Part shown: piece after piece, positions 421-57,377 of the stretch
Layout: each line of letters starts with the position of its first letter
How positions within the stretch are numbered: position 1 is the first letter of the stretch
Assembly (NCBI GenBank): GCA_964543375.1
Contig: CAZIYD010000002.1
Coordinates: 7,354 to 71,353 of the forward strand
Length of the DNA: 64,000 nt
Direction of reading: 5' to 3'
Origin: an uncultured Muribaculaceae bacterium
Lineage (GTDB): Bacteria > Bacillota_I > Bacilli_A > RF39 > UBA660
Program-made: the position numbers and the translations under genes
The notes under the pieces: generated by a model
Databases searched by the model: none
What the model was told of the DNA's origin: nothing
Seen by the model: only the letters and a program-made list of their open reading frames with translations

Positions 421-3400
421 TTATTTATCAACTATATTTAAAAATTCTAATGCATAAAAAAGAAAATGTTTATCTAATTTAAAAGTATCTAAAGTAACTT
501 TTAAACGCTTATATTCGTATGAGAATCTAAATTTTTTGTTTATAAACTGTGCTTCATAATATAAATCGTTTATATTTAATGTTTCTGTTTTTTCTCTAGT
601 AAATAGCAAATCTATGCTGTTTTTATTTTGATTTACTTTTTCTATACCCTTATCTCTAGCGAGTTTTTCAAACCATTCTTGATACATATAAAGTGTTAAA
701 TTATCAGATACTTTACCAAACCTATCTTCAATTTCTTCTTTTATCTCTAATAATTTTTCATAACTATCAATTTCATTTATCTTTTTATGTATTTCTATTT
801 TTATATTTTCATCTAAAACATATGTATCTTCTATGTGTGTGTCTATATTTATAAGTGGGGTTTGATCTTTTTCCAGTTTTTCTTTGTATGTACCTTTTAT
901 TTTTTCTACCTCTTCATTTATCATGCGAGTATATAATTCAATACCTACAGTATCAATAAAGCCGGACTGTTCACTACCCAATATATCTCCAGAACCTCTT
1001 ATTGAAAGATCTCTAATCGCAATGGACAGACCACTTCCAAGTTCCGTAAATTCTTTTATAGTTTTTAATCTTTTTGTTGCCATTTCACTTAATATTTTCT
1101 TTTTATCATACATTAAATAAGCATACGCAATTTTATTTGTTCTACCAACCCTTCCTCTTATTTGATATAACTGAGATAATCCAAATTTATCTGAATCTAT
1201 TATAATAAGGGTATTTACGTTAGGTATATCTATTCCCGTTTCTATTATTGTGGTACACACTAATATATCGTACTTTTTATCTATAAAGTCTATCATTATA
1301 TTTTCTATTTCATTTTTATTCATTTTACCGTGAGCGAATGTAATTTTAGAATCTGGAACTAGTTTTTCTATTTCTTTTACTTTAGATTCTATTTTTTCAA
1401 CATTATTAAAAAGGATATATACTTGTCCACCTCTAGACATCTCTTTATATATTGCCTCTTTTATTATAAGTGGATTTTCTTCGAGAACATAGGTTTGTAC
1501 TGGATATCTATTTATTGGAGGTGTTTCTATTAAAGAAAGGCCCCTTAAACCAACCATGGCCATTTGAAGAGTTCTTGGTATGGGTGTTGCGGATAAAGTT
1601 AAAACATCTATATTTGACTTGTATTCTTTAATTTTCTCTTTGTGAGTGACTCCAAAACGTTGTTCTTCATCTATAATAAGAAGTCCCAAGGATTTAAATT
1701 TAACATCTTTACTTAATAGTCTATGGGTTCCAAAAAGAATATCTATTTTTCCTTTTACTAAATCTTCTAAAATTTTATTTAATTCTTTTTTAGTGGTAAA
1801 TCTATTTAACAACGCAATAGAAACAGGATAATTTTTAAACCTTTCTAATGCGCTATTATATTGTTGTTTTGATAATAGTGTTGTTGGGCAAAGATATGCT
1901 ACTTGTTTATTATTTGATATTGCTTTAAAGATAGCTCTAAAAGCAACTTCTGTTTTTCCATATCCAACATCACCACATAGAATTCTATCCATTGGATATG
2001 GCAACTCCATATCATCTTTTATTTGTTTTGTAGATAATAGTTGATCTTTAGTTTCTTCGTATATAAATTCTTTTTCAAATTCTGTTTGATCTTCCGTATC
2101 TTTTGAAAAAGAGAAACCCTCTTGAAGTTTTCTTTCTGCAGAAACTTTTATTAATTTTTGAGCGATATCGTTTATTTTATTTCTCACTCTTAGTTTTGTT
2201 TTTTGCCAATCTGTTCCACCTAAACTATTTATTTTAGGTTTTGTTCCCTGACTTTCTTGAAATTTAGTTATTAAATCAATCTTTTCAACTGGAATATAAA
2301 GGTTTTCATTATTTTTATATTTAACCAATATATAGTCTTTTAAAACTCCGCCTTTTTCTAACGTAACGATTCCCGAATATATTCCAATCCCATGTGATTC
2401 GTGAACAACATAATCTCCAAAATTGAGTTTATTTATATCGTTTATTTTTGTGCCATATTTAAATTTACTTGCATATTTTGATTTTGTGCTTTTAGCTTTT
2501 AATATGTTTTTCTCACTAAAAACAACATAATTTTCGTAGATAAAACCATCATTTATCTTTTTTTCTAGTAAATTAATTGTATTTTCTTTTATATTTGATT
2601 CGTCTGTGATTATGGATTTATCTTTGATTATGTCTTTGATATTTAATATTTGCTTTTTTGATGAAAGAGCAATTATTACCGTTTTTTCTTGTTTTATATA
2701 CTGACTTATGTCTAAATTTAGTAATTCTATATTTTCTTCATAGTTATATTGATTTTTTACATCAAGAGTTATTGTTAAATCATAGTCTTTTGAACCTATA
2801 TTATCTAAACTACTTATATGAACTTCTTTATTCGCACTTATTTTATAAAGATCGTGTATATAGTTTGCTTCCTCGTTTTCTTTTATTTCTTTTGAATAAT
2901 TAAATATATCTTCTTCTAACTTATTATATGATGTGATTATTTGATTTATGTCTTTGTAAACTAATATAGAATTTTCTAAATAATCTAATATTGATGCTGT
3001 TTTTTCATAATTTTTTAAGTATTTTTGTTGTTTTTTTGCATCTTTGTTTTTTGAAATAAATTCACTCATTGGATATATTGTTATTTCATCTAGTTCTTTG
3101 ATTGATAATTGATTATCTATATCGAATTCTCTAATAGATTCTATTTGATCTCCAAAAAATTCTAATCTTATGGGATTTTCTTCTAAACAAGGGAAAATGT
3201 CGAGTATAAATCCTCTTTTTGCTATATCTCCAGTCTTTTTTACAAAACTATCTACTTCGTATCCTATTTCAAAAAGATGATTTATAAGATCATCTTTGTT
3301 TATATCTTGATTTAACTTTAAATTTAATATGCTATTTTTCCAATTTTCCTTTGTTGGAAGAATTCTTAAAAGCCCTGTTAAACTCGTTATTACTATTTTT

Positions 3401-3696
3401 TTTGAATTTGGTTGTACTATTTTATTTAGTGTTTCTAATCTAGTAACTTTTAATTCTGGACTTGTTGCATATATTTCTTCTGATATAAACTCATCAGTTG
3501 GAAAAAAAAGAACATCATTATTGTAGTTAGATATTGAATCGTAAATTTTGTTTGCTTCATATAAGGTATTTGCAACAACAAGTATATTTTTATCTTTTAA
3601 TGAATTTATATATATACTTAAAAATTCATCACTCTGACAAACTATTAAGGTCTTTTTTTCAATATTTGTGTTTATCTTATCGTATAAAAACTCCAT
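421..3696 (-). CDS. mfd: transcription-repair coupling factor
   Basis: 1091 aa. Superfamily-2 helicase motifs (LLCGDVGYGKTEVA Walker A, IIDEEQRFGV DEEQ box) in the C-terminal half and a UvrB-like N-terminal region. Size and layout fit Mfd rather than RecG. Sits in the pth-mfd neighbourhood. Confidence 0.9.
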   Translation of the reverse strand: MEFLYDKINTNIEKKTLIVCQSDEFLSIYINSLKDKNILVVANTLYEANKIYDSISNYNNDVLFFPTDEFISEEIYATSPELKVTRLETLNKIVQPNSKKIVITSLTGLLRILPTKENWKNSILNLKLNQDINKDDLINHLFEIGYEVDSFVKKTGDIAKRGFILDIFPCLEENPIRLEFFGDQIESIREFDIDNQLSIKELDEITIYPMSEFISKNKDAKKQQKYLKNYEKTASILDYLENSILVYKDINQIITSYNKLEEDIFNYSKEIKENEEANYIHDLYKISANKEVHISSLDNIGSKDYDLTITLDVKNQYNYEENIELLNLDISQYIKQEKTVIIALSSKKQILNIKDIIKDKSIITDESNIKENTINLLEKKINDGFIYENYVVFSEKNILKAKSTKSKYASKFKYGTKINDINKLNFGDYVVHESHGIGIYSGIVTLEKGGVLKDYILVKYKNNENLYIPVEKIDLITKFQESQGTKPKINSLGGTDWQKTKLRVRNKINDIAQKLIKVSAERKLQEGFSFSKDTEDQTEFEKEFIYEETKDQLLSTKQIKDDMELPYPMDRILCGDVGYGKTEVAFRAIFKAISNNKQVAYLCPTTLLSKQQYNSALERFKNYPVSIALLNRFTTKKELNKILEDLVKGKIDILFGTHRLLSKDVKFKSLGLLIIDEEQRFGVTHKEKIKEYKSNIDVLTLSATPIPRTLQMAMVGLRGLSLIETPPINRYPVQTYVLEENPLIIKEAIYKEMSRGGQVYILFNNVEKIESKVKEIEKLVPDSKITFAHGKMNKNEIENIMIDFIDKKYDILVCTTIIETGIDIPNVNTLIIIDSDKFGLSQLYQIRGRVGRTNKIAYAYLMYDKKKILSEMATKRLKTIKEFTELGSGLSIAIRDLSIRGSGDILGSEQSGFIDTVGIELYTRMINEEVEKIKGTYKEKLEKDQTPLINIDTHIEDTYVLDENIKIEIHKKINEIDSYEKLLEIKEEIEDRFGKVSDNLTLYMYQEWFEKLARDKGIEKVNQNKNSIDLLFTREKTETLNINDLYYEAQFINKKFRFSYEYKRLKVTLDTFKLDKHFLFYALEFLNIVDK

Positions 3697-3709
3697 TTTA
3701 GTACCTGTT

Positions 3710-4273
3710 TTATTGTTTTTTGTTATATTTCGTCATTAATTTTTCGAAATCAATAGTTAAAAAATCCATTAATATTTTATTTGTTGTAGAAAAAACATCC
3801 TTTAATATTTGTTTTTCTTCTTTACTAAATTTTCCTAAAACATAGTTCTTTTTATCAATATTATTATCTTTTGATATTCCTATTTTTAATCTTTTATAGT
3901 TTTTTGTATTTAGGTTATTTTCTATGTTTTTAAGTCCGTTGTGTCCAGCAGAGCTTCCAAACAATTTTAGTTTATAATTACCTATTTTTATATCCATATC
4001 ATCATTAATAACAATTATGTTCTCTATGTCTATTTTGTAAAAATTAATAAAGTTTTTTATAACTTCTCCAGATAAATTTATATATTTTAATGGTTTTAAT
4101 ATTATAACCTTTTCATTATTTATATTAAATATCCCATATATAGCATCCATCTTTTTTTCATTTAAATTGAGATTGTTTTTTTTACAAAATTCGTCGATAA
4201 CAGAAAAACCGACATTGTGTCTTGTCGACTTATAAAGTATTCCCGGATTTCCAAGACCTACTATTAACTTCAT
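3710..4273 (-). CDS. pth: peptidyl-tRNA hydrolase
   Basis: 187 aa, N-terminus MKLIVGLGNPGILYKSTRHNVGF is the Pth signature. Adjacent to mfd as in most bacteria. Confidence 0.92.
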   Translation of the reverse strand: MKLIVGLGNPGILYKSTRHNVGFSVIDEFCKKNNLNLNEKKMDAIYGIFNINNEKVIILKPLKYINLSGEVIKNFINFYKIDIENIIVINDDMDIKIGNYKLKLFGSSAGHNGLKNIENNLNTKNYKRLKIGISKDNNIDKKNYVLGKFSKEEKQILKDVFSTTNKILMDFLTIDFEKLMTKYNKKQ

Positions 4274-8654: not shown

Positions 8655-9083
8655 CTACTTTTTTCTTTGAATTTCAAAAAATTCTTTTATTATATCTTTA
8701 GACTCGTTTTCCATTAAACCGTATTCTATATCAATGTTATTTTGTTTTATTATTACATCTAAACTCTCTTTATAACGGTTGTTCCTAACAGAAGCATAAA
8801 TCTTCTTTATTCTCGTTTCTGCTATCAACCCCATACACATAATACACGGTTCTAGGTTTACAAATAGTAAACAACCATTTAATCTCCAATCGCCAAGTTT
8901 TTTACAAGCCTTTTTTATAGCAATTATTTCAGCATGATCAAACGGATTGTTATTTGATTCTTTTTTGTTGTGTGCTTTTGAGATTATTTTTCCATCACAA
9001 ACAACTATAGCCGCTACAGGTGTTTCATTGTTTTTGAAAGCTTTTTTTGCTTCTTTAATAACTTCTATCATATAAGATTTCAT
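8655..9083 (-). CDS. tadA: tRNA-specific adenosine deaminase
   Basis: CDA-fold zinc motifs HAEIIAI and PCIMC. Start placed at MKSYMIEV (complement 9081-9083), preceded by GGAGG-7nt. The longer ORF in the track (to 9113) starts inside a palindromic repeat and has no RBS. Confidence 0.85.
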   Translation of the reverse strand: MKSYMIEVIKEAKKAFKNNETPVAAIVVCDGKIISKAHNKKESNNNPFDHAEIIAIKKACKKLGDWRLNGCLLFVNLEPCIMCMGLIAETRIKKIYASVRNNRYKESLDVIIKQNNIDIEYGLMENESKDIIKEFFEIQRKK

Positions 9084-9095
9084 TTTGTTCCTCCA

Positions 9096-9176
9096 ATGTT
9101 CCACGTGGAACATAGTTTTTCTTATTAAAATTATTTCCCGGGAAATAATTTACCCTTAATGTTTCACGTGGAACAT
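9096..9176. repeat. composite palindromic repeat unit, copy 1 (ATGTTCCACGTGGAACAT - 17 bp - ATTTCCCGGGAAAT - 15 bp - ATGTTTCACGTGGAACAT)
   Basis: Read directly. Two near-identical 18-bp CACGTG-centred palindromes flank a 14-bp perfect CCCGGG-centred palindrome. An 82-bp near-identical copy lies at 9325-9405 on the other side of the SRP RNA gene. Confidence 0.75.
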
Positions 9177-9178
9177 TA

Positions 9179-9258
9179 AAAATGACGTACACGAATCGGG
9201 TTTGATTGGCTGCTACCTCTCGGTCCTGACCTGGTTATCAAGTGACTCGTTACGTCTC
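9179..9258 (-). ncRNA. ffs: signal recognition particle RNA (small 4.5S-type)
   Basis: Minus-strand sequence GAUAACCAGGUCAGGACCGAGAGGUAGCAGCCAAUCAAACC matches the universal SRP RNA domain IV (E. coli ACCAGGUCAGGUCCGGAAGGAAGCAGCCAAGG). Flanking GACGUA...UACGUC closing helix and a 3' U-run. Length about 80-100 nt, so the ends are approximate. Confidence 0.75.
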
Positions 9259-9262
9259 TTTA

Positions 9263-9291
9263 ATTATATTTTATAAGTTAAAATTAATCAA
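9263..9291 (-). promoter_or_regulatory. promoter of SRP RNA gene
   Basis: Minus strand TTGATT-17nt-TATAAT, ending about 7 nt upstream of the predicted SRP RNA 5' end. Confidence 0.5.
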
Positions 9292-9324
9292 CATTTATTG
9301 TTTTAATCTTTAGTTGGAGAGTTT

Positions 9325-9405
9325 ATAGTTTCACGTGAAACATAGTTTATTTTATCAAATTATTTCCCGGGAAATAATTTCCTCTTAATGTTTCACGTGG
9401 AACAT
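9325..9405. repeat. composite palindromic repeat unit, copy 2
   Basis: ATAGTTTCACGTGAAACAT...ATTTCCCGGGAAAT...ATGTTTCACGTGGAACAT. Ends 2 nt from the gyrA stop codon and lies just upstream of the ffs promoter. Confidence 0.75.
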
Positions 9406-9406
9406 A

Positions 9407-11836
9407 CTATTCTTTTACATTAAAAACAGCGGTTACTAATTGATCTTCTTTTAAGTTAATTAATCTAACTCCTTGGGTTACTCTTCCCATTGTAGATATT
9501 TGATCTATTGGAATTCTTATTACCATACCGCTATCGGTTATTATAATTAGATCCTCTTCTTCCTCGACTATTTTAAAAGCAACTATCTTTCCAGTTTTTT
9601 CTGTTGTGTTTAAAGTTTTAACACCTTTGCTCCCTCTTTTTGTTGTTCTATACTCATTTATTTCGGTTCTTTTTCCGTAGCCGTTTTCACTAACAACCAG
9701 AATTTTGCTATTTTCATCAACTATATTTGCGTCTATACAAACAGCATCTTTATCTAAATTAATTCCTCTAACTCCAGAAGCTGTTCTACCCATTATCCTT
9801 ACTTCTTCTTCATTAAACCTTACCATCTTGCCCTTTGAAGAAGCCATTACAATTTCAGAGTGTCCGTTTGTTTTTATTACAGAAATTAATTTATCTTCAT
9901 CTTTTAGCTTTATAGCAATCTTTCCAGTTTTTCTTATATTATGGAATTCTTCTACGTGACATCTTTTTACTAATCCGCCTTGTGTTGCAAATAATAAGCA
10001 CTTATTTTCTTCATCTTTTGAAACTTTTAATATTGAGGTTATTTTTTCATCTTTTTCTAAAGGTAATAAGTTTACAATTGGTAAACCTTTTGATTGTCTA
10101 CTGAACTCTGGAACCTCATAACCTTTTATTCTATATATTAAACCTTTATCAGAAAACAACATTAAGTAATCATGTGTATTTAACATTAATAGGTTCTCTG
10201 CAAAATCTTCTTCGTTTGTAGTCATTCCTTTTACGCCAGTTCCTCCACGATTTTGAGTTCTATAAGTATCTAGTGGCAATCTTTTTATATAACCTTTATT
10301 TGTTAAAGTTATTATAATTTCTTCTTGTGGAATTAACTCTTCATCGTCAATGTGTTCTATTGAAGACATATCAATTTTTGTTCTTCTTTCATTGGCATAC
10401 TTTTCTTTTATTTCAAGCATTTCTTTCTTAATTATTTCTAAAACCTTTTGAGTATCCGCTAAAATTTCTTCTAATTCTTTTATTAAGATTAAAAGATTTT
10501 TTAGTTCTTCTTCTATTTTGCCTCTTTCTAAACCTGTTAGACGTCTTAATTTCATTTCAAGTATTGCTTCTGATTGTAATTCACTCAATCCAAAACGATT
10601 TTTTAACTCTTCTTTTGCTTTTTGATCATCTTTTGAAGTTTTAATTATCTTTATTATTTCGTCTATATTATCTAAAGCTATTTTTAATCCTTCTAGTATG
10701 TGTTCTCTAGCCTTTGATTTTTCTAGATCAAATTGTGTTCTTCTAATAATTATTGTCTTTTGATAGTCAACATAATGCATAAAAATATCTCTTAAACCTA
10801 AAGTTTTTGGTTTACCGTCTACTAACATAAGTAAGTTTATACCATAAGATATTTGTAGTGGTGTGTGTTTATATAAGTTATTTAAAACAACATTGGCATT
10901 TGCTTCCTTTTTTAATTCAATATTTAATTTCATTCCTTCTAAAGAAGATTCATCGTGTAAGTCGCTTATGCCATCTAATTGTTTATTTCTTATTAACTCA
11001 CCTATTTTTTTTGTTAAATCATTCGTTTTACTTATTTGATATGGGACTTCTGTTATTAAAATTTTGCTTTTCTTACCTTCTTCTTCTATTATTTCAGCTT
11101 TTCCTCTTAATATAATAGATCCTTTTCCTGTTTCATATGCTTTTTTTATACCACTATTTCCTAATATATATCCATATGTTGGAAAATCTGGACCTTTTAC
11201 ATATTGCATTAATTCTAAAACTGTTATCTCTGGATTATCTATGTATGCTATACATCCATCTATTACTTCTCCAAGATTATGTGGAGGTATATTTGTTGCC
11301 ATACCAACGGCTATTCCCATGTTTCCGTTTACTAATATATTTGGAAATCTAGATGGTAATATATTTGGTTCTCTTCTTTGACCGTCATAGTTATCAGAAA
11401 AATCTACTGTATTTTTATTTATATCTCTTAAAATTTCCATAGAAATTTTTGATAATCTTGCTTCTGTATAACGAGATGCAGCTGGGCTGTCACCATCTCC
11501 AGAACCAAAGTTACCGTGTCCATCTACTAGTACGTGTCTATATGTAAAATCTTGAGCCATTCTAGCCATTGAATCATATATTGCTGAATCTCCATGAGGA
11601 TGATAATGCCCCATTACTGCCCCAACAGCATTAGCACTTTTTTGATGCTTTTTTTCTGGCGTCATTCCTTCTTCAAACATTGTGTAAAGAATTCTTCTAT
11701 GAACTGGTTTTAAACCATCTCTAACGTCGGGTATTGCTCTAGCTACTATTACACTCATAGAGTAATCTAAAAATGAGTTTTTAATTTCAGCGGATAAATT
11801 TATATCTTCTATTCTATCTATTATTTTTTCTTCCAT
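9407..11836 (-). CDS. gyrA: DNA gyrase subunit A
   Basis: 809 aa. N-terminus with AIPDVRDGLKPVHRRILY, active-site region, C-terminal beta-pinwheel repeats. Immediately follows gyrB. Confidence 0.97.
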   Translation of the reverse strand: MEEKIIDRIEDINLSAEIKNSFLDYSMSVIVARAIPDVRDGLKPVHRRILYTMFEEGMTPEKKHQKSANAVGAVMGHYHPHGDSAIYDSMARMAQDFTYRHVLVDGHGNFGSGDGDSPAASRYTEARLSKISMEILRDINKNTVDFSDNYDGQRREPNILPSRFPNILVNGNMGIAVGMATNIPPHNLGEVIDGCIAYIDNPEITVLELMQYVKGPDFPTYGYILGNSGIKKAYETGKGSIILRGKAEIIEEEGKKSKILITEVPYQISKTNDLTKKIGELIRNKQLDGISDLHDESSLEGMKLNIELKKEANANVVLNNLYKHTPLQISYGINLLMLVDGKPKTLGLRDIFMHYVDYQKTIIIRRTQFDLEKSKAREHILEGLKIALDNIDEIIKIIKTSKDDQKAKEELKNRFGLSELQSEAILEMKLRRLTGLERGKIEEELKNLLILIKELEEILADTQKVLEIIKKEMLEIKEKYANERRTKIDMSSIEHIDDEELIPQEEIIITLTNKGYIKRLPLDTYRTQNRGGTGVKGMTTNEEDFAENLLMLNTHDYLMLFSDKGLIYRIKGYEVPEFSRQSKGLPIVNLLPLEKDEKITSILKVSKDEENKCLLFATQGGLVKRCHVEEFHNIRKTGKIAIKLKDEDKLISVIKTNGHSEIVMASSKGKMVRFNEEEVRIMGRTASGVRGINLDKDAVCIDANIVDENSKILVVSENGYGKRTEINEYRTTKRGSKGVKTLNTTEKTGKIVAFKIVEEEEDLIIITDSGMVIRIPIDQISTMGRVTQGVRLINLKEDQLVTAVFNVKE

Positions 11837-13880: not shown

Positions 13881-15005
13881 TTAAATGTCAATTTGGTTGT
13901 TTTCTTTTATTTTTTTACTTTTTATATTGAATGTTTTTGCTCCATTTAATACTTTTTTATCTATATTGTTTAAATCAGTAGTTGTAATAAAGGTTTGAAC
14001 GTCTTTTTTGATATATTTTATTATGTTATTTTTCTTGTTTTCATCTAATTCGCTAAAAATATCATCTAATAAAAGGACTGGATAATCTCCTGTTTCTTCT
14101 TTAAATATTTCTATTTCAGCAAGTTTAAGACAAACTATTATTATTCTTTGTTGACCTTGTGAAGCGTGAAGTCTAACATCCTTTTTATTTATATAAAAAA
14201 TTATATCGTCTCTGTGAGGACCATTTATAGTCATACCTAAAAATAAATCTCTTTTAATATTTGAAGATAGTTTTTTATAAAAATTTTCTTTAATATTTGA
14301 TAAATCTTTAAACTCCTCTATATCTATGTTTGTTTTATATTCTAATATTAATTCTCCTTCTTTAAATATTGTTTTATATATTTTTTGTGCTTTTTTATTC
14401 AGTTTTTGAACAAATAAACTTCTTTTTTGATATATTATTGCTCCTTTTTTTGATATTTGTTCATTTATTATAGATAAATAGTCTAAATCTAAGTCTTCAT
14501 ATTTTTTGTTTTTTATATATTCGTTTCTAGTTTTTACAAGCAAATTGTATTCGTTTAATTCAGACAAGTATTTATTGTCTATTTGCGCTATTTCTATATT
14601 TAAGAATTTTCTTCTATATGATGGATTTCCCTTTATTAGATCTAAATCGCTGGGATTAAACATTATTACATTGAAATTTGAAATATAGTTACTTATTTTT
14701 TTAATTATTATATTATTTATTTTTGCACTTTTTCCTTTTGTGTTTATTAAAATTTCTAATTTTTTTAATTCGTTTTTTTGTTCTACTTTACCCATTATTT
14801 TTGTAGCTTGCAATCCATCTTTTATTAGGTGTTTGTCGATTCCTACTCTATGAGATTTAGTTATAGCTAAAACATATATACTTTCTAATATATTTGTTTT
14901 TCCTTCTGCATTTTCACCATAAAAAATGTTTATGTTTGGTGAAAAAGACAAGTTTAAATTTTCATAATTTCTGAAGTTTTTTAATTCTAATTCTTTTAAT
15001 ATCAT
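13881..15005 (-). CDS. recF: DNA replication and repair protein RecF
   Basis: 374 aa. MILKELELKNFRNYENLNLSFSPNINIFYGENAEGKTNILESIY Walker A (SMC-like ABC ATPase), signature and Walker B (LLLDDIFSELD) in the C-terminus. Confidence 0.93.
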   Translation of the reverse strand: MILKELELKNFRNYENLNLSFSPNINIFYGENAEGKTNILESIYVLAITKSHRVGIDKHLIKDGLQATKIMGKVEQKNELKKLEILINTKGKSAKINNIIIKKISNYISNFNVIMFNPSDLDLIKGNPSYRRKFLNIEIAQIDNKYLSELNEYNLLVKTRNEYIKNKKYEDLDLDYLSIINEQISKKGAIIYQKRSLFVQKLNKKAQKIYKTIFKEGELILEYKTNIDIEEFKDLSNIKENFYKKLSSNIKRDLFLGMTINGPHRDDIIFYINKKDVRLHASQGQQRIIIVCLKLAEIEIFKEETGDYPVLLLDDIFSELDENKKNNIIKYIKKDVQTFITTTDLNNIDKKVLNGAKTFNIKSKKIKENNQIDI

Positions 15006-15006
15006 G

Positions 15007-16362
15007 TTATTTTCCTAAACAAAAGTTATTGAATATTTCATCTACTAGTTCATCTTTATAACTCTTTCCTATTACATCTCCAAGTAATTCCCAAATTTGT
15101 TTTAAATCTATTTCTAGTATATCAACAGGCAAGTCTGCTTTTAAACCTTGTTTTAAATCCTCTATATTATCTATAGTTTGTTTTAATGTGCTTATTTGAC
15201 GTATGTTAAACAAATAATTTGGATCTTTTTTATCTATTTCATTCAAGTTGAATTTTTCTATTATTTTATCTTTAAGCTTTATTATATTGTTATCTATTGC
15301 ACTTATTTCTACAATATCTCCATTGAGATTTTCTTTGTTTATTTTTTGATCTAAATCTATTTTATTTATTACAATTATTCTGTTTTTGTTTTTTGTTTTT
15401 TCTAATAATTCATTATCCTCTTTACTAAGTGGCTCGTTATTATTTAAAACTAATATTATTAAATCTGCTTCTTCTATTAAATTTAAAGATTTGTCTACTC
15501 CAATTTTTTCTATTACATCAGTTGTTTCTCGTATTCCTGCTGTATCGGTTATATTTAAAAGTATCGAATTTATTGTAATTGACCCTTCGACAACATCTCT
15601 AGTAGTTCCTGCTATGTCAGTTACTATAGCCTTATCTTCATCTATTAATCGATTTAACAAACTACTTTTACCTACGTTTGGCTTACCCAATATAACAGTA
15701 TTTATCCCTTCTTTTATTAATTTTCCGTTTTCACTTTCTTTAATTATGTTTTTTATTTCTTTTTCTATTATTATAATTTCTTTTGAAATCATTTCTCTTG
15801 TTATAACTAATATATCTTCGTATTCTGGATAATCTATATTTGCTTCTATATTTGCAAGAATTTTAGATATTTTATTTCTTAATATTTCTATCATTTCTGA
15901 AATATTGCCTTTTATTCCATTAATTGCTAACTTTCTTGCTGATTCTGTTTTAGAATTTATTAAATCCATAATGGCTTCTGCTTCTATTAAATCTATTCTT
16001 CCATTTAAAAATGCTCTTTTTGTAAATTCTCCTGGTTCTGCAAGTCTAGCACCATTTTTTATTAATAATTCTAATATCTTATTAGTAGAGGTTATGCCAC
16101 CATGACAATTTATTTCTACTATATCTTCTTTTGTAAAAGTTTTAGGAGATCTCATTACGCTTACTAAAACTTCATCTATTATTATATCTTCATCTTTTAT
16201 AAAGCCATAATTAATAGTATGAGTGTTTACTTTACTCAAGTCTCTACTAAATAGTTTATTTACTATATCAATTGAATTTTTACCACTTAGTCTTATTATA
16301 GATATTGCTCCTATACCTAAGGCTGTTGATATTCCCGCTATTGTGTCATACATAAAAATCAC
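15007..16362 (-). CDS. mnmE: tRNA modification GTPase MnmE
   Basis: 451 aa. G-domain GKPNVGKSSLLN, DTAG, NKID motifs, C-terminal CLGK tetrapeptide typical of MnmE. Confidence 0.95.
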   Translation of the reverse strand: MIFMYDTIAGISTALGIGAISIIRLSGKNSIDIVNKLFSRDLSKVNTHTINYGFIKDEDIIIDEVLVSVMRSPKTFTKEDIVEINCHGGITSTNKILELLIKNGARLAEPGEFTKRAFLNGRIDLIEAEAIMDLINSKTESARKLAINGIKGNISEMIEILRNKISKILANIEANIDYPEYEDILVITREMISKEIIIIEKEIKNIIKESENGKLIKEGINTVILGKPNVGKSSLLNRLIDEDKAIVTDIAGTTRDVVEGSITINSILLNITDTAGIRETTDVIEKIGVDKSLNLIEEADLIILVLNNNEPLSKEDNELLEKTKNKNRIIVINKIDLDQKINKENLNGDIVEISAIDNNIIKLKDKIIEKFNLNEIDKKDPNYLFNIRQISTLKQTIDNIEDLKQGLKADLPVDILEIDLKQIWELLGDVIGKSYKDELVDEIFNNFCLGK

Positions 16363-16401
16363 CCAAATATATTATATCATTAAAAAAAAGAGTATTAAAC
16401 T

Positions 16402-17013
16402 CTAATCTTTTTTCTTTATAGTTATACATCTATTTGGTTCTTCACCAATAGATTCTGTCGATATTCCTGTTATTTTAGAACAGATACTATGTACTAACCT
16501 TCTTTCATAAGAATTCATAGGATCTAAAGTGGTTGTAACTCCAGTTTTCTTAACATTAAAAGCTATATTTTTTATTGTTCTTTCTAAATTTCTTTGTTGT
16601 TTTTCTCTATAATCTTCGACATCTATAATTATATTAACTTTAAAGCCCGTTAAATTTTGAATTGAACTTCTAACTATAACTTGTATAGAATCTAAAGTTT
16701 GACCATTTCTTCCTATTAAAATAGAATTATTGTCTGAAAATAAAGTGAATTTTAAATAATCATCTCTCTTTTTTGCCTCAACATTAGCATCTAATCCCAT
16801 TTTTGATGTTATATCAATAAGTAATGTTTTTATATATTCTATTAAATCGTCTTTTAATATTGCTACAAGTTTAGCTTTCTTTGTTTTAAAAAGACCTCCA
16901 TATTCTTCTGTTTCTTTATATAATATGTCTTTTTCTGAAACATTTAATTCATAAAACATTTTTTCTTTTGCTAACTCTATATTTTTTTCAATATATTCAT
17001 AATTTTTTATCAT
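16402..17013 (-). CDS. khpB: RNA-binding protein Jag/KhpB (Jag_N, KH and R3H domains)
   Basis: 203 aa. C-terminal R3H-like YERRLVHSICSKITGISTESIGEEPNRCITIKKK. Conserved position between mnmE and yidC. Confidence 0.85.
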   Translation of the reverse strand: MIKNYEYIEKNIELAKEKMFYELNVSEKDILYKETEEYGGLFKTKKAKLVAILKDDLIEYIKTLLIDITSKMGLDANVEAKKRDDYLKFTLFSDNNSILIGRNGQTLDSIQVIVRSSIQNLTGFKVNIIIDVEDYREKQQRNLERTIKNIAFNVKKTGVTTTLDPMNSYERRLVHSICSKITGISTESIGEEPNRCITIKKKD

Positions 17014-17014
17014 A

Positions 17015-18028
17015 CTAACCTCTTTTCTTGACTAATACATTTTGTATTACTGTGAAAATATTTGATGCAATCCAATATAAACTTACTGCAGTTGTCATAG
17101 AAAAGGACATAAATACTATCATCACTATAAATACTGTATTCATTATATTCATTTGTTTTTGATTTTCTAAAGAAGATGAAGCACCTTTATTAAGTTTAAA
17201 TGATAGGTATGTTATTATAGCAAGAACCAGTACTATGATTATATAAAACCAAAGACCTTTTTGAATTGCAATTGTTGGTGTCATACCTAAATTAAACCCT
17301 AAAAATTTGCCTTCAAATATCGCAGGAGTTCTATTTATTGCCTCTATAAATGCAAATAATAATGGTATTTGAATTATTGCAAATAAGCAACTAGACATAG
17401 GATTAATATTATATTTTTTATATAAAAGCATAGTTTCTTGACTTTTTTTCATAACAGATTCTTGATCTGTCTTGCCTTCATATTTTTTTTCTATTTTCTT
17501 TATTTCTGGTTGTGCTTTTTTTATATTTTCAGATTGTAAAGCAGTATTTTTTGTTACAGGCATAAGTACAACTCTAATAAGAATACTTATTATTATTAAA
17601 GATAAACCATAGTTATTTAACCATGCACCAACTTTTAATATTAGCCATGCTAATGGTTTTACAAAGACAGTATCCCATAAACCTTCATATTTAGAATCTG
17701 ATAGTTTGTACTCATTACAAGCAGGTAATTTTTCTATATCTACTTTATATTTTTCATATATTTTTATTACATCTTTATTAGTGGGTTTACAAAGTATATT
17801 TTCTGTTAACATTTGACCTGTTTCGTTTGTCTTAAAAATACTACAATTATCATTGCATTCTTTTTTACAACTTTCTTTCGTGTCTTCGTTTATACATATT
17901 TCATCACATTTTTCACATAAATGAATTGCTTCATATTTTACTGGTTTTTTATCTTTATCTACTAGTGTTTTTGAGCATCCAGTTAAAACAATGACAAGAA
18001 ATAGTATTAATATTATTTTTTTATTCAT
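17015..18028 (-). CDS. yidC: membrane protein insertase YidC/OxaA with Cys-rich extracytoplasmic N-terminal extension
   Basis: 337 aa. Lipoprotein signal MNKKIILILFLVIVLTGCS, about 95-aa Cys-rich segment (10 Cys), then the 5-TM YidC core starting near GLWDTVFVKPLAWLI. Conserved position next to rnpA. Confidence 0.9.
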   Translation of the reverse strand: MNKKIILILFLVIVLTGCSKTLVDKDKKPVKYEAIHLCEKCDEICINEDTKESCKKECNDNCSIFKTNETGQMLTENILCKPTNKDVIKIYEKYKVDIEKLPACNEYKLSDSKYEGLWDTVFVKPLAWLILKVGAWLNNYGLSLIIISILIRVVLMPVTKNTALQSENIKKAQPEIKKIEKKYEGKTDQESVMKKSQETMLLYKKYNINPMSSCLFAIIQIPLLFAFIEAINRTPAIFEGKFLGFNLGMTPTIAIQKGLWFYIIIVLVLAIITYLSFKLNKGASSSLENQKQMNIMNTVFIVMIVFMSFSMTTAVSLYWIASNIFTVIQNVLVKKRG

Positions 18029-18036
18029 ATTTACCT

Positions 18037-18375
18037 CTAAAGATTTTTTAATAAATCAACAAGTTCATTTTCTTTTTCTCTATAATCTAAATTTAAGATT
18101 AAACTTCTTGCTATTATTATGTAATCCAATTTTTTTAATTTTTCTCTGTTATTATCAATTATATTTTTTAATTGACGTTTGATTTTATTTCTAACCACTG
18201 CTATTCCTATTTTTTTGGGAATAGATATACCAACTCTATATTTATCTTTTTTTTTGTCTATATAATATATTACATAGTACTTATTTTTTAATAATTTCCC
18301 GTTTTTTATTATGTTATTAAAATCTTCATTAGATTTAACTATATTTATTTTTTTCATTAATACTCCACATAACAA
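18037..18375 (-). CDS. rnpA: ribonuclease P protein component
   Basis: 112 aa. Basic protein with KYRVGISIPKKIGIAVVRNKIKRQLKN (RNR motif region). Follows rpmH. Confidence 0.92.
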   Translation of the reverse strand: MLCGVLMKKINIVKSNEDFNNIIKNGKLLKNKYYVIYYIDKKKDKYRVGISIPKKIGIAVVRNKIKRQLKNIIDNNREKLKKLDYIIIARSLILNLDYREKENELVDLLKNL

Positions 18376-18378
18376 AAA

Positions 18379-18395
18379 ACCACTAAAGTGGTGTT
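18379..18395 (-). terminator. hairpin plus U-run between rpmH and rnpA (partial terminator/attenuator)
   Basis: Minus strand ACCACTTTAGTGGTTTTTTGTT: 6-bp stem ACCACT/AGTGGT followed by a U-run. A partial terminator at this position is known in Bacillus rpmH-rnpA. Confidence 0.4.
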
Positions 18396-18524
18396 CTATT
18401 TAGTTAATTTTTTTCTTCCTTTTTTTCTTCTAGCTGAAACAACACCAGAATCTGCTTTTTTTCGAGCAAAGAATCCATGTATCTTTTTAGCTTTAGATTT
18501 ATTAGGTTGATATGTTCTTTTCAT
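18396..18524 (-). CDS. rpmH: 50S ribosomal protein L34 (ORF absent from the supplied track)
   Basis: Manual translation [42 protein letters not shown] (42 aa) is a canonical L34. RBS GGAGGAAGT precedes the ATG. Located at oriC upstream of rnpA. Confidence 0.9.
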
Positions 18525-18540
18525 ACTTCCTCCTCTTCTT

Positions 18541-18816
18541 AAAACATTATAATTATAAAGGTTAAGCATTTAAAAGTCAATTAAAAAATTATAAACATAT
18601 TAACATACTTGTTGATTAAAAATAATAGTTGTTAATTACAAAAAATATATGATTTTGTGGATAAGTGTATTCTTTTACTATAAAAACTAATAATTAGTTG
18701 TTATTAACTCTGTGGATAAGTTGTTATTAACTTGTTATTTATTATTTTGTTGTTTAATTTTTGAAGAAAATGATTTACAATATAGTTAAATTGTTTGAAA
18801 GTAGGAGGTAAATTTT
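18541..18816. promoter_or_regulatory. oriC region upstream of dnaA with DnaA boxes
   Basis: Two perfect DnaA boxes (TGTGGATAA, the complement of TTATCCACA) at 18657-18665 and 18711-18719, AT-rich flanks and the dnaA promoter region. Confidence 0.75.
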
Positions 18817-20166
18817 ATGGATGAAATAAAATTATGGGAAAATTTTTTAAATTTAATTAAAGATAAAATATCTCCTATATCATATGATACTTGGTTTAGT
18901 GATACAAAATTACATAAAATAGAAAATAAAAAGATATTTATTATAGTTCCCATGAACATTCACAAAAAAAATATTCAAGAAAATTATTCAGATTTATTAA
19001 AAGAAACTATTAACTCTTTAACAGGAACTAATTTTGAATTTATATTTTTATTAGAAGAAGAAATCAATGTTAAAGATGTAAACAATGTAGAAGAGGGTGT
19101 CCCTTTTAATAATCCTATACAAGCTAATTTAAATCCTAATTATACTTTTGATACTTTTGTTATTGGAGAAACTAATAGAATGTCATTTACTGCTGCTTTT
19201 GCGGTTGCAGAAAGACCGGGAAAAGCATATAATCCACTATTTTTATATGGTAGTAGTGGTCTTGGAAAAACTCATTTAATGCAAGCTATTGGAAATTATA
19301 TAATTGAAAATACTAATAAAAAGGTTTTATATATAACAAGTGATAAATTTAAATCAGATTTTATAGCAATAAATAAGAGAAAACATGATGAAAATAATAT
19401 AGAATATGTTGATTCTTTTAAAGAAAAATACAGAAATATAGATGTATTAATAATAGATGATATACAATTTCTAGCAGGCGCTACCGAAAGTCAAACAGAA
19501 TTTTTTCATACATTTAATGAACTTCATCAAGAAGGAAAACAAATAATAATTTCTTCAGACAGATCTCCAGATGATTTAAAATTACTAGAAGAACGTTTAA
19601 GAACTAGATTTAACTGGGGACTTGCAGTAAATATATTTCCACCTGATTATGAACTTAGAATTGAAATATTAAAGAAGAAGTTATCTGTTCACGATATAGC
19701 TAGACCTATAAAAGAAGATGTTCTTGTATTTATTGCTACCAATTGTGCTTCAGATGTAAGAAAGTTAGAAGGAGCATTAAATAGATTATTTGCTTATACA
19801 GCAATGTTTAATAAAGAAATTATAGATATTGATGTTGCTAAAGAAGCCTTAAATGATTTTTTAAGTAGTACTGAATATATAAAAAATAATATTCAAAAAA
19901 TTCAAAAAATTGTAAGTGATTTTTATCAAATAACCGTTGAAGATTTAAATTCTAAAAAAAGAAATAATAAGGTTGCTTTTCCTAGACAAGTAGCAATGTA
20001 TTTATCTAGACAATTAACAGATGAAAGTTTTCCTAGAATTGGTATAGAATTTGGGGGAAGAGATCATACAACGGTAATACATGCATGTAATAAAATTGAA
20101 CAAGAAATTAAAAATAATAAAGAATTTAAAAATACAATAGAGTTGTTGAAAAAGAAGTTAAAATAA
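18817..20166 (+). CDS. dnaA: chromosomal replication initiator protein DnaA
   Basis: 449 aa. AAA+ Walker A GSSGLGKTHL, sensor motifs, C-terminal DNA-binding helix VAMYLSRQLTDESFPRIGIEFGGRDHTTVIHA. Confidence 0.97.
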   Translation: MDEIKLWENFLNLIKDKISPISYDTWFSDTKLHKIENKKIFIIVPMNIHKKNIQENYSDLLKETINSLTGTNFEFIFLLEEEINVKDVNNVEEGVPFNNPIQANLNPNYTFDTFVIGETNRMSFTAAFAVAERPGKAYNPLFLYGSSGLGKTHLMQAIGNYIIENTNKKVLYITSDKFKSDFIAINKRKHDENNIEYVDSFKEKYRNIDVLIIDDIQFLAGATESQTEFFHTFNELHQEGKQIIISSDRSPDDLKLLEERLRTRFNWGLAVNIFPPDYELRIEILKKKLSVHDIARPIKEDVLVFIATNCASDVRKLEGALNRLFAYTAMFNKEIIDIDVAKEALNDFLSSTEYIKNNIQKIQKIVSDFYQITVEDLNSKKRNNKVAFPRQVAMYLSRQLTDESFPRIGIEFGGRDHTTVIHACNKIEQEIKNNKEFKNTIELLKKKLK

Positions 20167-20271
20167 TGTGTATAATAATAACAAAAATGGATTAAATAAA
20201 AGGAATAAATTGAATTATTCACATTATCCACTATAATAATAAAAATATAATAAAAAAGAAAGGAATATAAA
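20167..20271. promoter_or_regulatory. dnaA-dnaN intergenic AT-rich region with a DnaA box-like site (second oriC half / DUE candidate)
   Basis: TTATCCACT (8/9 match) at 20225-20233 within >85% AT sequence. Confidence 0.45.
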
Positions 20272-21390
20272 ATGAATTTTATAATAAAAAAAGAAATATT
20301 TTTAGAAAACTTAAACAATGTATCGAAAGCCATCTCATCAAAAAACATAATACCTATATTAGGAGGAATTAAATTAGATTTAGATAGTAATGGATTATCA
20401 CTAACTTGTAGTGATAATGAAATAACTATTAGAAGTTTTATAGAAAAAAAATACATAGATAAAATAAATACAAAAGGAAGTATTGTAATATTAGGTAGAT
20501 ATTTTATAGAATTAATTAGAAAAATACCTTGTGATACTATAGAAATAGTTACAGATGGATTAAATTTAACTATAAATACAAAAAATGGAGAATATAATTT
20601 AAATGGTATGAACCCAGAAGAATTTCCAGATAAAACTTTAGAATTAGTAGAAAATCCTATAAAAATAGATAAAAATGTAATAAAAAACATAATAAATCAA
20701 ACATCATTTGCAATATCAAATCAAGAATCTCGTCCAATATTAACGGGTATAAATATCAAAATCAAAGATAATAAAATGGAATGTGTAGCAACAGATTCTT
20801 ATAGACTTGCTAAAAAAATGCTAAAAATTGAAGAAAATATAAAAGAAGAAGTAAATATAGTAATACCTGGAAGAAATTTAATAGAACTATCCAAAATAAT
20901 AAATGATGAACCAGAAAAAGTAGAATTTCATATTTTTTCAAGTAATGTTTTATTTAAATTTGATAATATCTTATTTCAATCTAGATTATTAAATGGAACT
21001 TATCCAGATACTTCAAAATTAATAAAATTAGATTCTTTAGTAAATATAACTGTTAATACAGAAGAATTATATAATTCAATAGATAGAGCTTCTCTTTTAA
21101 CTAATGAAAAAGATAAAAATGTAATAAAAATGGAATTAAAAGAAAAAGAGTTAATAATAAGTTCAACATCTCAAGAAATAGGTAATATAGAAGAAAAGAT
21201 AGAAATAGAAAAAAATAATGATACAAATATAGAAATATCATACTCTTCTAAATATATGATGGAAGCACTTAGAACTATAAAAAGTCAAAAAACGGAAATT
21301 CATATAGGTGGCGAGATAAAACCTATAATATTAAAATCCACAGAAGATGATAATTTAATTCAATTAATAGTTCCAATAAAAACTTTTTAA
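20272..21390 (+). CDS. dnaN: DNA polymerase III beta sliding clamp
   Basis: 372 aa. Three-domain beta-clamp pattern, N-terminus MNFIIKKEIFLENLNNVSKAI. Conserved position after dnaA. Confidence 0.95.
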   Translation: MNFIIKKEIFLENLNNVSKAISSKNIIPILGGIKLDLDSNGLSLTCSDNEITIRSFIEKKYIDKINTKGSIVILGRYFIELIRKIPCDTIEIVTDGLNLTINTKNGEYNLNGMNPEEFPDKTLELVENPIKIDKNVIKNIINQTSFAISNQESRPILTGINIKIKDNKMECVATDSYRLAKKMLKIEENIKEEVNIVIPGRNLIELSKIINDEPEKVEFHIFSSNVLFKFDNILFQSRLLNGTYPDTSKLIKLDSLVNITVNTEELYNSIDRASLLTNEKDKNVIKMELKEKELIISSTSQEIGNIEEKIEIEKNNDTNIEISYSSKYMMEALRTIKSQKTEIHIGGEIKPIILKSTEDDNLIQLIVPIKTF

Positions 21391-21450
21391 TAAATATTGT
21401 TAAATTATAAAAAAAATATTATAATCTAACTTTAGAAATCAGGTGATTTT

Positions 21451-23259
21451 ATGGATTATGATGTAATAATAGTTGGTGGAGGACACGCAGGATGCGAAGC
21501 AGCTTTGGCTACTTCGCGTTTATCACATAAAACCTTACTAATAACTAGTAATTTTAATACTGTAGCACAAATGCCTTGTAATCCATCTATTGGTGGTTCT
21601 GCTAAAGGAATAGTCGTTAGAGAAATAGATGCACTTGGTGGAGAAATGGGTAAATGTGCTGATAAAACATTAATTCAAATGAAAATGTTAAATACTGGAA
21701 AAGGTCCAGCAGTAAGAAGTTTAAGAAGTCAAGCAGATAAAGAAACTTATCCAAAAGAAATGTTAAAAACATTAAAAGAACAAGTAAATCTAGAACTATT
21801 AGAATCTATGGTAGAAGATTTAATAATAGAAAATGGTGTTATTAAAGGGATAGTTTTAGAAAATAATAAAAAAATAACTTCAAAAATAGTAATTTTAACC
21901 ACTGGTACATACTTAAAAAGTGATATATTAGTGGGTTCAACTAGAACAAGAAGTGGTCCAATGAACGAAAAACCATCTTTATTTTTAAGTGATAATTTAA
22001 AAAAGATAGGTTTTGATATATTGAGATTAAAAACAGGAACACCTCAAAGAATAGAAAAAAGTTCTATAGATTTTTCTAAAACAAAAGAAGAATTTGGATC
22101 TGAAATACCATATACATTTAGTTTTGAAAATAAAATATATTATGATGTTAATAATCAAGTATCTTGTCATTTAATTCATACAACAAAAGAAACGAAACAA
22201 ATAATATTAAATAACTTAGAAAAATCCTCAATGTATGGAGCAATAGAGGATATTTTAGGAGTTGGTCCTAGATATTGTCCTTCAATAGAAGATAAAATCG
22301 TAAGATTTCAAGATAAAGAAACTCATCAAATTTTTTTAGAACCTGAAAGTTTATATAGTAATGAAATATATCTTCAAGGTTTTTCAACAAGTATGCCAAA
22401 AGATATACAAGAAAAACTTGTAGCATCACTCCCGGGATTAGAAAATGCTAAAATATTGAAATATGCATATGCAATAGAATATGATGCAATAAATCCAACA
22501 CAGTTGAAAAATAATTTAGAAACAAAATTAATAGAAAATTTATTTACAGCAGGTCAAATAAATGGTACAAGTGGATATGAAGAAGCAGCTTGTCAAGGTC
22601 TTATAGCAGGAATAAATGCCTCAAATAAATTAAATAATAAAGAACCATTAATTTTAAAGAGAAACGAAGCATATATAGGTGTTTTAATAGATGATTTAAT
22701 AACAAAAGGAACATATGAACCATATAGATTACTTACATCAAGGGCAGAATATAGATTATTACTTAGACATGATAATGCAGATTTAAGATTAACTGAATAT
22801 GGATATAATGTTGGTTTAATCAGTCAAGAAAGATATAATAAATTTAAACAAAAACAAAAAAATATAGAGAATTTATTAGAATTATCTAAAACAATTAAAG
22901 TAAAAAATGAATCAATGTATAAATACTTAAAACATCCTGAATCTAGTATATTTGATATAAAAGATTTAGAAAATAAATATACTAAAGAAGAGTTAGAACA
23001 AGTAGAAATTATAATCAAGTATGAAGGATATATTAAAAAAACAGAAAAACAAGCAGAAAATATGTTAAAACTTGAATTTAAAAAAATACCAGAAGATATA
23101 AATTACGATAATATTAAAAATTTAGCTTCTGAAGCAAGACAAAAATTAAATAAAATAAGACCAGAATCTATAGGTCAAGCAAGTAGAATAAGTGGTGTTA
23201 ATTTATCAGATATTGCAATATTATTAGTATATATGAAGAGGTATTTTAAAAATGAATGA
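21451..23259 (+). CDS. mnmG: tRNA uridine 5-carboxymethylaminomethyl modification enzyme MnmG (GidA)
   Basis: 602 aa. FAD-binding N-terminus MDYDVIIVGGGHAGCEAALA and conserved MnmG C-terminal region. Confidence 0.96.
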   Translation: MDYDVIIVGGGHAGCEAALATSRLSHKTLLITSNFNTVAQMPCNPSIGGSAKGIVVREIDALGGEMGKCADKTLIQMKMLNTGKGPAVRSLRSQADKETYPKEMLKTLKEQVNLELLESMVEDLIIENGVIKGIVLENNKKITSKIVILTTGTYLKSDILVGSTRTRSGPMNEKPSLFLSDNLKKIGFDILRLKTGTPQRIEKSSIDFSKTKEEFGSEIPYTFSFENKIYYDVNNQVSCHLIHTTKETKQIILNNLEKSSMYGAIEDILGVGPRYCPSIEDKIVRFQDKETHQIFLEPESLYSNEIYLQGFSTSMPKDIQEKLVASLPGLENAKILKYAYAIEYDAINPTQLKNNLETKLIENLFTAGQINGTSGYEEAACQGLIAGINASNKLNNKEPLILKRNEAYIGVLIDDLITKGTYEPYRLLTSRAEYRLLLRHDNADLRLTEYGYNVGLISQERYNKFKQKQKNIENLLELSKTIKVKNESMYKYLKHPESSIFDIKDLENKYTKEELEQVEIIIKYEGYIKKTEKQAENMLKLEFKKIPEDINYDNIKNLASEARQKLNKIRPESIGQASRISGVNLSDIAILLVYMKRYFKNE

Positions 23260-26036: not shown

Positions 26037-26044
26037 GAGATTTT

Positions 26045-50398: not shown

Positions 50399-50436
50399 TA
50401 CTTCAATCTATTTTTTATTAATATTAAATATAACTC

Positions 50437-50467
50437 ATTGTTAAAAAGGGTTTTCTATGTTATAATT
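50437..50467 (+). promoter_or_regulatory. candidate promoter upstream of ORF 50482
   Basis: TTGTTA-17nt-TATAAT read directly in the 83-bp gap after the Hint-domain gene. Confidence 0.4.
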
Positions 50468-50481
50468 TTTATGGTGAAAAT

Positions 50482-50979: not shown

Positions 50980-50982
50980 TTT

Positions 50983-51897: not shown

Positions 51898-51907
51898 GAG
51901 GTAAATA

Positions 51908-52876: not shown

Positions 52877-52885
52877 GGGGTATTT

Positions 52886-54406: not shown

Positions 54407-54414
54407 GTGTTCTT

Positions 54415-57282: not shown

Positions 57283-57377
57283 AACATACTCCTTCCTTTA
57301 CTATATGTTAACACCAGCTATTGTAAATATCAATTAATAAAATGTAAAATATACAGTGTGTTTACAAAAATTTATAA

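Follow-up and report, generated by a model that had tools for sequence, protein, structure and literature searches.

The parS site is the centromere-like element of bacterial chromosomes at which dimers of ParB, alias Spo0J, load. Noc loads at a site of its own, the Noc-binding site (NBS). The pairs parS/ParB and NBS/Noc are the textbook case of a DNA-binding protein whose duplicate took on a new site and a new function; in model organisms the two systems are kept apart both in space and in function. In Bacillus subtilis the parS sites are dispersed singletons, mostly within genes. Clustered centromere arrays are known from the sopC repeats of plasmid F and from the chromosomal parS clusters of Caulobacter, Corynebacterium and Streptomyces. 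We here analyse two palindromic elements that flank ffs, the gene of the small signal recognition particle (SRP) RNA, between gyrA and tadA on a 64-kb stretch of contig CAZIYD010000002.1, deposited as DNA of an uncultured Muribaculaceae bacterium. The whole stretch is called the window, and all coordinates are window positions. Most likely, with a probability of about three in four, the two elements are parS-NBS-parS clusters that provide a compact origin-proximal loading platform for ParB and for a Noc-like clamp dependent on cytidine triphosphate (CTP).

How the two proteins tell their sites apart has been worked out by Jalal et al. 2020 (PMC7383237), where the parS consensus TGTTNCACGTGNAACA is also confirmed. 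The sites differ only at positions 1 and 6 of the half-site, which are G and A in parS and A and C in NBS. Specificity is set by four residues, R173/T179/A184/G201 in ParB and Q173/K179/K184/R201 in Noc, and a single lysine, 179 or 184, suffices as the permissive residue for NBS binding. In the deep mutational scan of the same paper, R173 is present in every strict parS binder, position 201 is T or S in most dual-specificity variants, and Q173 plus R201 with K179 makes NBS-preferring variants; the variants QKSR, QKNR and QKGR are not explicitly listed in its supplementary tables. Canonical Noc further has a segment of about 26 residues ahead of the N-terminal domain, with a 10-residue amphipathic membrane-targeting helix and a helix alpha2; once deprived of the membrane-targeting helix, Noc fails to bind liposomes, and its nucleoid occlusion is impaired (PMC8429893). 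In the literature we found no report of a natural conserved array of interleaved parS and NBS sites, nor of an anchor-less Noc subfamily accompanying it.

Identity of the sites

The region 9084-9409 between gyrA and tadA contains four CACGTG-centred palindromes and two CCCGGG-centred ones, all around ffs:

9096-9113 (core 9097-9112): parS site 1, 18-bp palindrome ATGTTCCACGTGGAACAT, exact match to TGTTNCACGTGNAACA, adjoining the tadA ribosome-binding site
9128-9151 (core TATTTCCCGGGAAATA at 9132-9147): NBS 1, 24-bp perfect palindrome, identical to the published 16-bp Noc-binding site
9159-9176: parS site 2, ATGTTTCACGTGGAACAT, directly behind the terminal helix and U-tract of ffs
9326-9343: parS site 3, TAGTTTCACGTGAAACAT, degenerate, with one mismatch within the 16-bp core
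9357-9380 (core 9361-9376): NBS 2, the same 24-bp palindrome as NBS 1
9388-9405: parS site 4, ATGTTTCACGTGGAACAT, 1 nt from the gyrA stop codon

By its letters, the CACGTG palindrome matches the ParB/Spo0J centromere site parS, and the CCCGGG palindrome, present in two identical 24-bp copies (AAATTATTTCCCGGGAAATAATTT) that flank ffs, is the exact Noc-binding site. The original prediction had not recognised the palindromes as operators of a known regulator, yet both types match known sites; its suggestion that they might be protein-binding sites agrees with both matches. Both motifs and both protein families are already well known, and what used to be "unknown palindromes" is thereby explained. 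Their identity also corrects the annotation as an unknown repeat that the elements would otherwise receive.

Chance does not account for the palindromes. A search of the window for TGTTNCACGTGNAACA with up to two mismatches gave five matches, where 0.11 are expected by chance. Four of them are at the array (three exact, one with a single mismatch); the fifth, at 6076 with two mismatches, is probably a chance match. The 14-mer ATTTCCCGGGAAAT occurs exactly twice in the 64 kb, both times at the array, against 0.18 expected. The predicted palindromes around ffs are thus confirmed as present and non-random, and they recur in relatives (see below).

Each unit has the order parS-NBS-parS. The units measure 81 bp (9096-9176) and 80 bp (9326-9405), not the 82 bp given before, and the spacers inside them, read on the plus strand, are 19/12 and 18/12 bp rather than 17/15 bp. 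The proposed consensus ATGTT(T/C)CACGTG(G/A)AACAT is not fully matched by the degenerate CACGTG copy at 9326-9343. The second unit repeats the first in direct orientation at a distance of about 230 bp, and the inner 60 nt of the two are 88% identical.

Conservation across relatives

The strict pattern parS-N(8-30)-NBS-N(8-30)-parS, scanned for in 185,579 species-representative genomes, occurs at 39 loci (L001-L039). The hosts are uncultured gut metagenome-assembled genomes (MAGs) throughout, under the labels Bacilli, Mollicutes, Mycoplasma, Erysipelotrichaceae and Clostridium and in some cases, evidently wrongly, Muribaculaceae. All 39 loci have the neighbourhood gyrB-gyrA-array-tadA-dnaX; the array sits between gyrA and tadA in nearly all of them and behind tadA in L024 and L032. 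Their GyrA is 59-70% and their TadA 36-53% identical to that of the window, and at 75% DNA identity the 39 loci and the window fall into at least 20 lineages, which have diverged deeply. A looser scan of metagenome contigs for NBS beside parS yielded at least 120 loci (L046-L165). The gyrA-tadA context is shared by 116 of the 120 listed; the remaining four are three short AT-rich fragments and one other organism (L137). Altogether, 155 relatives have the sites at the gyrA-tadA locus.

In 1.13 Mb of related loci, 545 parS and 362 NBS were counted where fewer than 0.01 are expected, and only 20 of these parS and 50 of these NBS lie outside the main arrays. No NBS was found in the 21-kb oriC regions of relatives, and the window has no NBS beyond its two array copies. 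As judged from these comparisons, a clade of uncultured, AT-rich Bacilli of the gut conserves the array close to the origin. The array can serve as a simple sequence marker of the origin region in these MAGs.

Two minor observations may be added. The dnaX coding sequences of L001, L002, L013, L030 and L033 each contain a solitary exact NBS, some 1.7-1.8 kb away from the array; the dnaX of the window has none. Further, several MAGs labelled "uncultured Muribaculaceae" have an AT-rich gyrA-ffs-tadA-dnaX locus of Firmicutes type (L002, L008, L013, L014, L019, L029, L032-L034, L038), and the labels or bins of these MAGs are probably wrong.

Array anatomy and spacing

In the common core of the loci, gyrA is followed after 60-100 bp by parS-NBS-parS and, some 90 bp further on, by ffs and then tadA. 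The layout from which the loci derive consists of gyrA, one parS-NBS-parS unit, ffs promoter, ffs and tadA; it was later expanded by local duplication in individual lineages. Expansions comprise runs of extra parS (up to nine parS), arrays with up to seven NBS, and alternating parS/NBS arrays, e.g., in L004, L007, L010 and L034. A second cluster behind ffs is present in the window, L008, L011, L016, L022 and L028; the lineage of the window gained its second unit downstream of ffs.

With the chromosomal parS/ParB (Spo0J) system of Firmicutes (consensus TGTTNCACGTGAAACA) the locus shares the 16-bp palindrome, the origin-proximal position and the multiple copies, and CTP-dependent ParB clamps are to be expected on it. 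Here, however, a stretch of a few hundred bp in one intergenic spacer accommodates two to nine sites, which alternate with NBS. The NBS core is identical to the 16-bp core of Bacillus subtilis and Staphylococcus aureus, yet the canonical NBS are scattered, whereas those of the clade are paired with parS at one locus, apart from isolated ones such as those in dnaX of relatives. The sopC repeats and the chromosomal parS clusters resemble the array in that loading sites are arranged in tandem, duplicated locally and concentrated in a short origin-proximal or partition region. Those clusters, however, consist of one type of site for one ParB; here the sites of two paralogues are interleaved at a preferred helical phase.

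Sequence logos of 160 parS and 84 NBS show conservation confined to the 18-bp ATGTTNCACGTGNAACAT and to about 22-24 bp of AAtTATTTCCCGGGAAATAaTT, with the flanks at background. The spacers vary freely among genomes in length (23-45 bp centre to centre) and in sequence. In degenerate copies, uncompensated substitutions outnumber compensatory ones by 52 to 4 in parS and by 66 to 0 in NBS (118 to 4 in total), which argues that the sequence, and not the pairing of a hairpin, is under selection. Among the decayed NBS listed from the arrays of L001-L165, 37 of 65 have changed from CCCGGG to CCCAGG or CCTGGG; this amounts to a change from C to T at the central CpG, for which methylation and deamination of cytosine could be responsible.

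In the genome set, the centre distances of adjacent parS and NBS peak at about 26 and 36-37 bp and dip at 30-31 and 41-42 bp (R=0.32-0.40, p ~0.001); in the independent metagenome set they peak near 26, 36, 46-47 and 55-56 bp (Rayleigh R=0.23 at 10.5 bp, n=240, p ~2e-6), p-values which are optimistic in both sets, since related genomes are not statistically independent and no correction for phylogeny enters them. The phase of about 4-5 bp modulo 10.5 places the dyads of parS and NBS roughly half a turn apart. This spacing is suggestive of helical phasing and, with it, of a physical relationship between the two bound proteins.

The Noc-like protein

One gene of the window encodes a protein of the ParB family:

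24014-25411, plus strand (open reading frame, ORF, possible from 23987): Noc-like ParB-family gene, Pfam ParB_N and HTH_ParB

It sits directly behind mnmG-rsmG and is the sole ParB-family gene in the window. Homologues start at the methionine encoded at 24014, and gene callers begin the protein at Met10 of the ORF from 23987. The noc model TIGR04285 ranks above the generic ParB model, and among solved structures in the PDB the best relatives are Noc with 193 bits and Spo0J with 164 bits. The recognition region, GKSQSYIANKLRLLSL followed further on by SERHAR, translates into the specificity residues Q-K-S-R. The protein is accordingly predicted to be NBS-specific, because one permissive lysine is enough. 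The CTP motifs GERRxxA and ENLxR are intact. The last 35 residues align to positions 221-255 of the 255 positions of the noc model (E = 2.5e-4), i.e., to the Noc-type C-terminal dimerisation domain. The protein thus has in common with canonical Noc the Q173, K179 and R201 of the recognition helix, the CTP motifs, the C-terminal domain and the gene position right behind rsmG.

What it does not share is the membrane anchor. The window protein begins about six residues ahead of the conserved N-terminal domain, and in the window and in relatives only 5-12 in-frame codons precede the start. This leaves no room for a membrane-targeting segment of about 26 residues, and the protein therefore lacks a membrane-targeting helix at its N-terminus. 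A low-complexity linker of about 230 residues, for which canonical Noc has no counterpart, separates its domains. When the linker was searched for a conserved motif able to replace the membrane helix, only weak islands turned up, in a part where the alignment is unreliable. Two stretches of the 474-residue ORF that match the noc model had suggested a tandem ParB-Noc fusion. This was dismissed: Pfam shows a single ParB_N plus HTH, and the other matching stretch belongs to the small C-terminal domain of Noc type behind the low-complexity linker.

The protein does not stand alone. The 120 nearest homologues and the best 150 representatives of clusters at 50% identity were taken as a sample of the subfamily. 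All of them (120/120 and 150/150) are of the Q type, and no R-type relative, i.e., one with R173, is among the 150 representatives. Nearly all sampled relatives have K179 together with R201, and their residue 184 is N, S, T, A or G. Among the 150 representatives, 144 have the motif PNRFQPR at a distance of 14-21 residues from the N-terminus. Total lengths range from 227 to 834 residues, of which the low-complexity linker takes 100-600. By these features the Noc-like proteins form a large coherent subfamily of at least 150 clusters at 50% identity, whose members are likewise devoid of the membrane-targeting helix. Models in the style of the Prokaryotic Genome Annotation Pipeline (PGAP) would call the protein merely "ParB/RepB/Spo0J family".

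A proposed platform for two clamps

The array lies near the origin of replication. The GC skew switches its sign at about 18.4-18.8 kb, where rnpA and dnaA diverge, and two perfect DnaA boxes are present there; together these features put oriC about 9.3 kb from the array. Such an origin-proximal position is the classic location of parS. The reading that we prefer, parS-NBS-parS clusters as a common loading platform, could work as follows. The Noc-like protein, encoded 15 kb away, would nucleate on the NBS sites, and a postulated partner, canonical ParB with R173, on the parS sites. Both would close as CTP-dependent clamps, spread across the gyrA-dnaX region and form one mixed nucleoprotein complex, which would mark and organise the origin region for segregation and probably also for the loading of SMC. 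A separate R-type ParB is predicted because a protein with Q173 and R201 should not bind parS, strict parS binders being R173. Since it has no membrane-targeting helix, the Noc-like protein probably acts as a second centromere-associated clamp and is unlikely to be a membrane-tethering nucleoid-occlusion factor.

This reading can be extended. Instead of serving nucleoid occlusion, the Noc-like protein may be a CTP clamp that binds the centromere as the second protein beside ParB and assembles jointly with it on the interleaved, helically phased array, and it might represent a living intermediate on the path of neofunctionalisation from ParB to Noc or a reversion on that path. It combines the DNA specificity of Noc with the absence of a membrane anchor and with one of the two permissive lysines, which is what points to an intermediate or reversion. 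In its extreme version, it would be the sole ParB-family protein left in reduced genomes. We offer the extended reading as tentative and would rather bet against it.

That a canonical ParB works together with the Noc-like protein has to be weighed against several observations. Neither a six-frame motif scan nor phmmer with a fragment of B. subtilis Spo0J detected a second ParB or a ParA in the window. No parAB is present in the 21-kb oriC/noc neighbourhoods of three Noc-like homologues; the position next to noc that parAB usually takes in Firmicutes holds unrelated genes, so that, in contrast to the Firmicutes system, no cognate ParB or ParA gene is seen near noc or oriC. The 158 related gyrA-tadA loci contain no R-type ParB or ParA, nor do the roughly 9 kb that adjoin the window on its right (only some 4 kb in the case of L166), where exact look-up of the proteins revealed just ones devoid of family matches. 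Also the assignment to Noc has its weak points: the TIGR04285 score of 273.4 bits is below the curated cut-off of 315, and position 184 is N, S or G where canonical Noc has K184. Finally, the p-values of the phasing are flattering, as stated above.

An unrelated Firmicute tells what a complete set may look like. On the metagenome contig L137 (about 49% GC), positions 741-4110 comprise a noc with the residues Q-K-Q-R, a 950-bp spacer, parA and an R-type parB, and the noc-parA spacer contains four parS and one NBS. Judged by these genes and sites, L137 is a positive control for the logic of a separate ParB and Noc. It shares with the array the occurrence of parS and NBS within 50 bp in a single spacer. 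The differences are that its sites lie between noc and parAB, with one NBS and with R-type ParB and ParA alongside, whereas the array of the clade is at gyrA-ffs-tadA. Co-clustering of parS and NBS hence also occurs outside the AT-rich clade, at another locus.

The clade combines parS and NBS, placed side by side at a preferred helical phase in a fixed origin-proximal locus, with an anchor-less Noc-like protein and with parAB missing from its usual place. It thus is a natural system for studying the role of Noc prior to, or in the absence of, membrane tethering, and for asking whether clamps of ParB and of Noc can work together on one DNA. Both questions concern bacterial chromosome segregation and the divergence of Noc from ParB.

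Alternative explanations

The missing parAB invites the idea that one protein serves both types of site: with canonical ParB lost, the Noc-like protein, perhaps as a heterogeneous population, would bind NBS and parS as the sole centromere-binding protein. The Noc-like gene is indeed the only ParB-family gene in all examined DNA of the clade, parAB is absent from its usual place beside noc, position 184 is N/S/G and not the near-invariant K of Noc, and parS and NBS are always adjacent and phased. Against this stand the residues themselves, since strict parS binding goes along with R173 without exception, most dual-specificity variants show T or S at 201, and Q173 plus R201 with K179 corresponds to variants that prefer NBS. 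Moreover, the examined DNA covers a small part of each genome, and L137 encodes both proteins. We consider the one-protein solution unlikely. A decidedly unlikely explanation, too, is that the sites are mainly transcriptional operators at which bound ParB-family proteins would regulate ffs and/or tadA, with chromosome organisation being secondary. It would suit the loci L001, L002, L003, L009, L013, L018 and L030, where the last parS abuts the -35 box of ffs (AACA directly followed by TTGATT-17-TATAAT), so that a ParB dimer bound there would touch the ffs promoter; it would also suit the parS located 20-30 nt ahead of the tadA start in the window, L008, L011, L016, L022 and L028. Arrays that grow to nine parS or seven NBS, however, exceed the need of an operator, L024 and L032 have the array behind tadA, the promoter-proximal parS of the window is the degenerate one, some 40 nt from the -35 box, and the motifs are the canonical chromosome-wide ones.

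Palindromes of this kind fold, of course, and the downstream unit as RNA reaches -32.4 kcal/mol (z = -5.6); there is also one terminator-like match, though on the antisense strand. Yet a function as hairpin in RNA or DNA, be it terminator, processing signal or cruciform, is very improbable. The uncompensated substitutions counted above speak against it, positions 5/12 of parS vary without keeping the pairing (26 of 160 sites have C/A), and the exact sequence is kept in at least 20 lineages, whereas a hairpin would keep its pairing only. The upstream unit precedes the ffs promoter and is thus outside the ffs transcript, and no Rfam family except SRP matches at the array. The original prediction had listed such a role in processing or termination among its options, and had also considered a mobile element, similar to a miniature inverted-repeat transposable element (MITE) or a repetitive extragenic palindrome (REP), that carried ffs to an unusual position. 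Two direct copies that flank ffs and have inner spacers 88% identical do look like this at first sight. Among the relatives, however, ffs keeps this position: in 35 of 38 related loci scanned, ffs lies between gyrA and tadA, the other three being cut at the contig end, and gyrA-ffs-tadA is the ancestral gene order. No further copy of the element exists in the 64 kb, the sites of relatives are always at this one locus (155 relatives), the variable spacers are unrelated in sequence between genomes, and there are no terminal repeats or target-site duplications beyond the palindromes themselves. The chance that a mobile element is behind the array is close to nil.

Flanking genes and gene order

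All genes near the array are on the minus strand, in the order gyrA, upstream unit, ffs promoter, ffs, downstream unit, GGAGGA ribosome-binding site, tadA and dnaX:

9407-11836, minus strand: gyrA, NCBIfam NF004043, 1174 bits
9291-9263, minus strand: ffs promoter, TTGATT-17-TATAAT, 10/12 consensus positions
9178-9257, minus strand: ffs, small SRP RNA, RF00169, 46.4 bits (Rfam match 9170-9266)
8655-9083, minus strand: tadA, likely start ATG at 9083, behind GGAGGA
18376-18816: oriC in the rnpA-dnaA spacer, from the GC-skew sign change, gene identities and perfect DnaA boxes at 18656 and 18711

The gyrA stop codon occupies 9407-9409, 1-2 nt from the last palindrome, in line with the 2 nt given before. 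The true core of ffs extends from about 9256 to 9183 and is followed by the U-tract. The longest tadA ORF begins with the ATG at 9113 within a palindrome, as had been noticed; the GGAGGA ribosome-binding site and the alignment of the TadA family argue for the ATG at 9083 as the start. On the plus strand, antisense to these genes, parS site 1 and the adjoining AGTTTTTCTT (9096-9122) score as a terminator-like hairpin, upstream of which no obvious plus-strand gene is seen.

Over 13881-23947 of the window, the order of the genes around oriC is rearranged. There, recF-gyrB-gyrA-array-tadA-dnaX is found on the rnpA side of oriC, behind mnmE, and mnmG-rsmG-noc lies behind dnaN; L042 and L097 are organised likewise. 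Most relatives, as compared in L005, L012, L014, L032, L036 and L087, retain the classical order dnaA-dnaN-recF-gyrB-gyrA. The distance from array to oriC is about 8-9 kb in both layouts. Behind the Noc-like gene, at 25443-26896 on the plus strand, follow two prepilin-type genes with an N-terminal methylation motif like that of ComGC/GspG, a pair also found behind the Noc-like gene in L042 and L043; Bacillus carries soj-spo0J at this place. Farther away, from about 48000 to 59162, the window contains a run of ORFs nearly free of Pfam matches, DUF2357 being the only one, and just past the window end, in L167, a giant ORF of 2438 residues lies behind this DUF2357-containing run.

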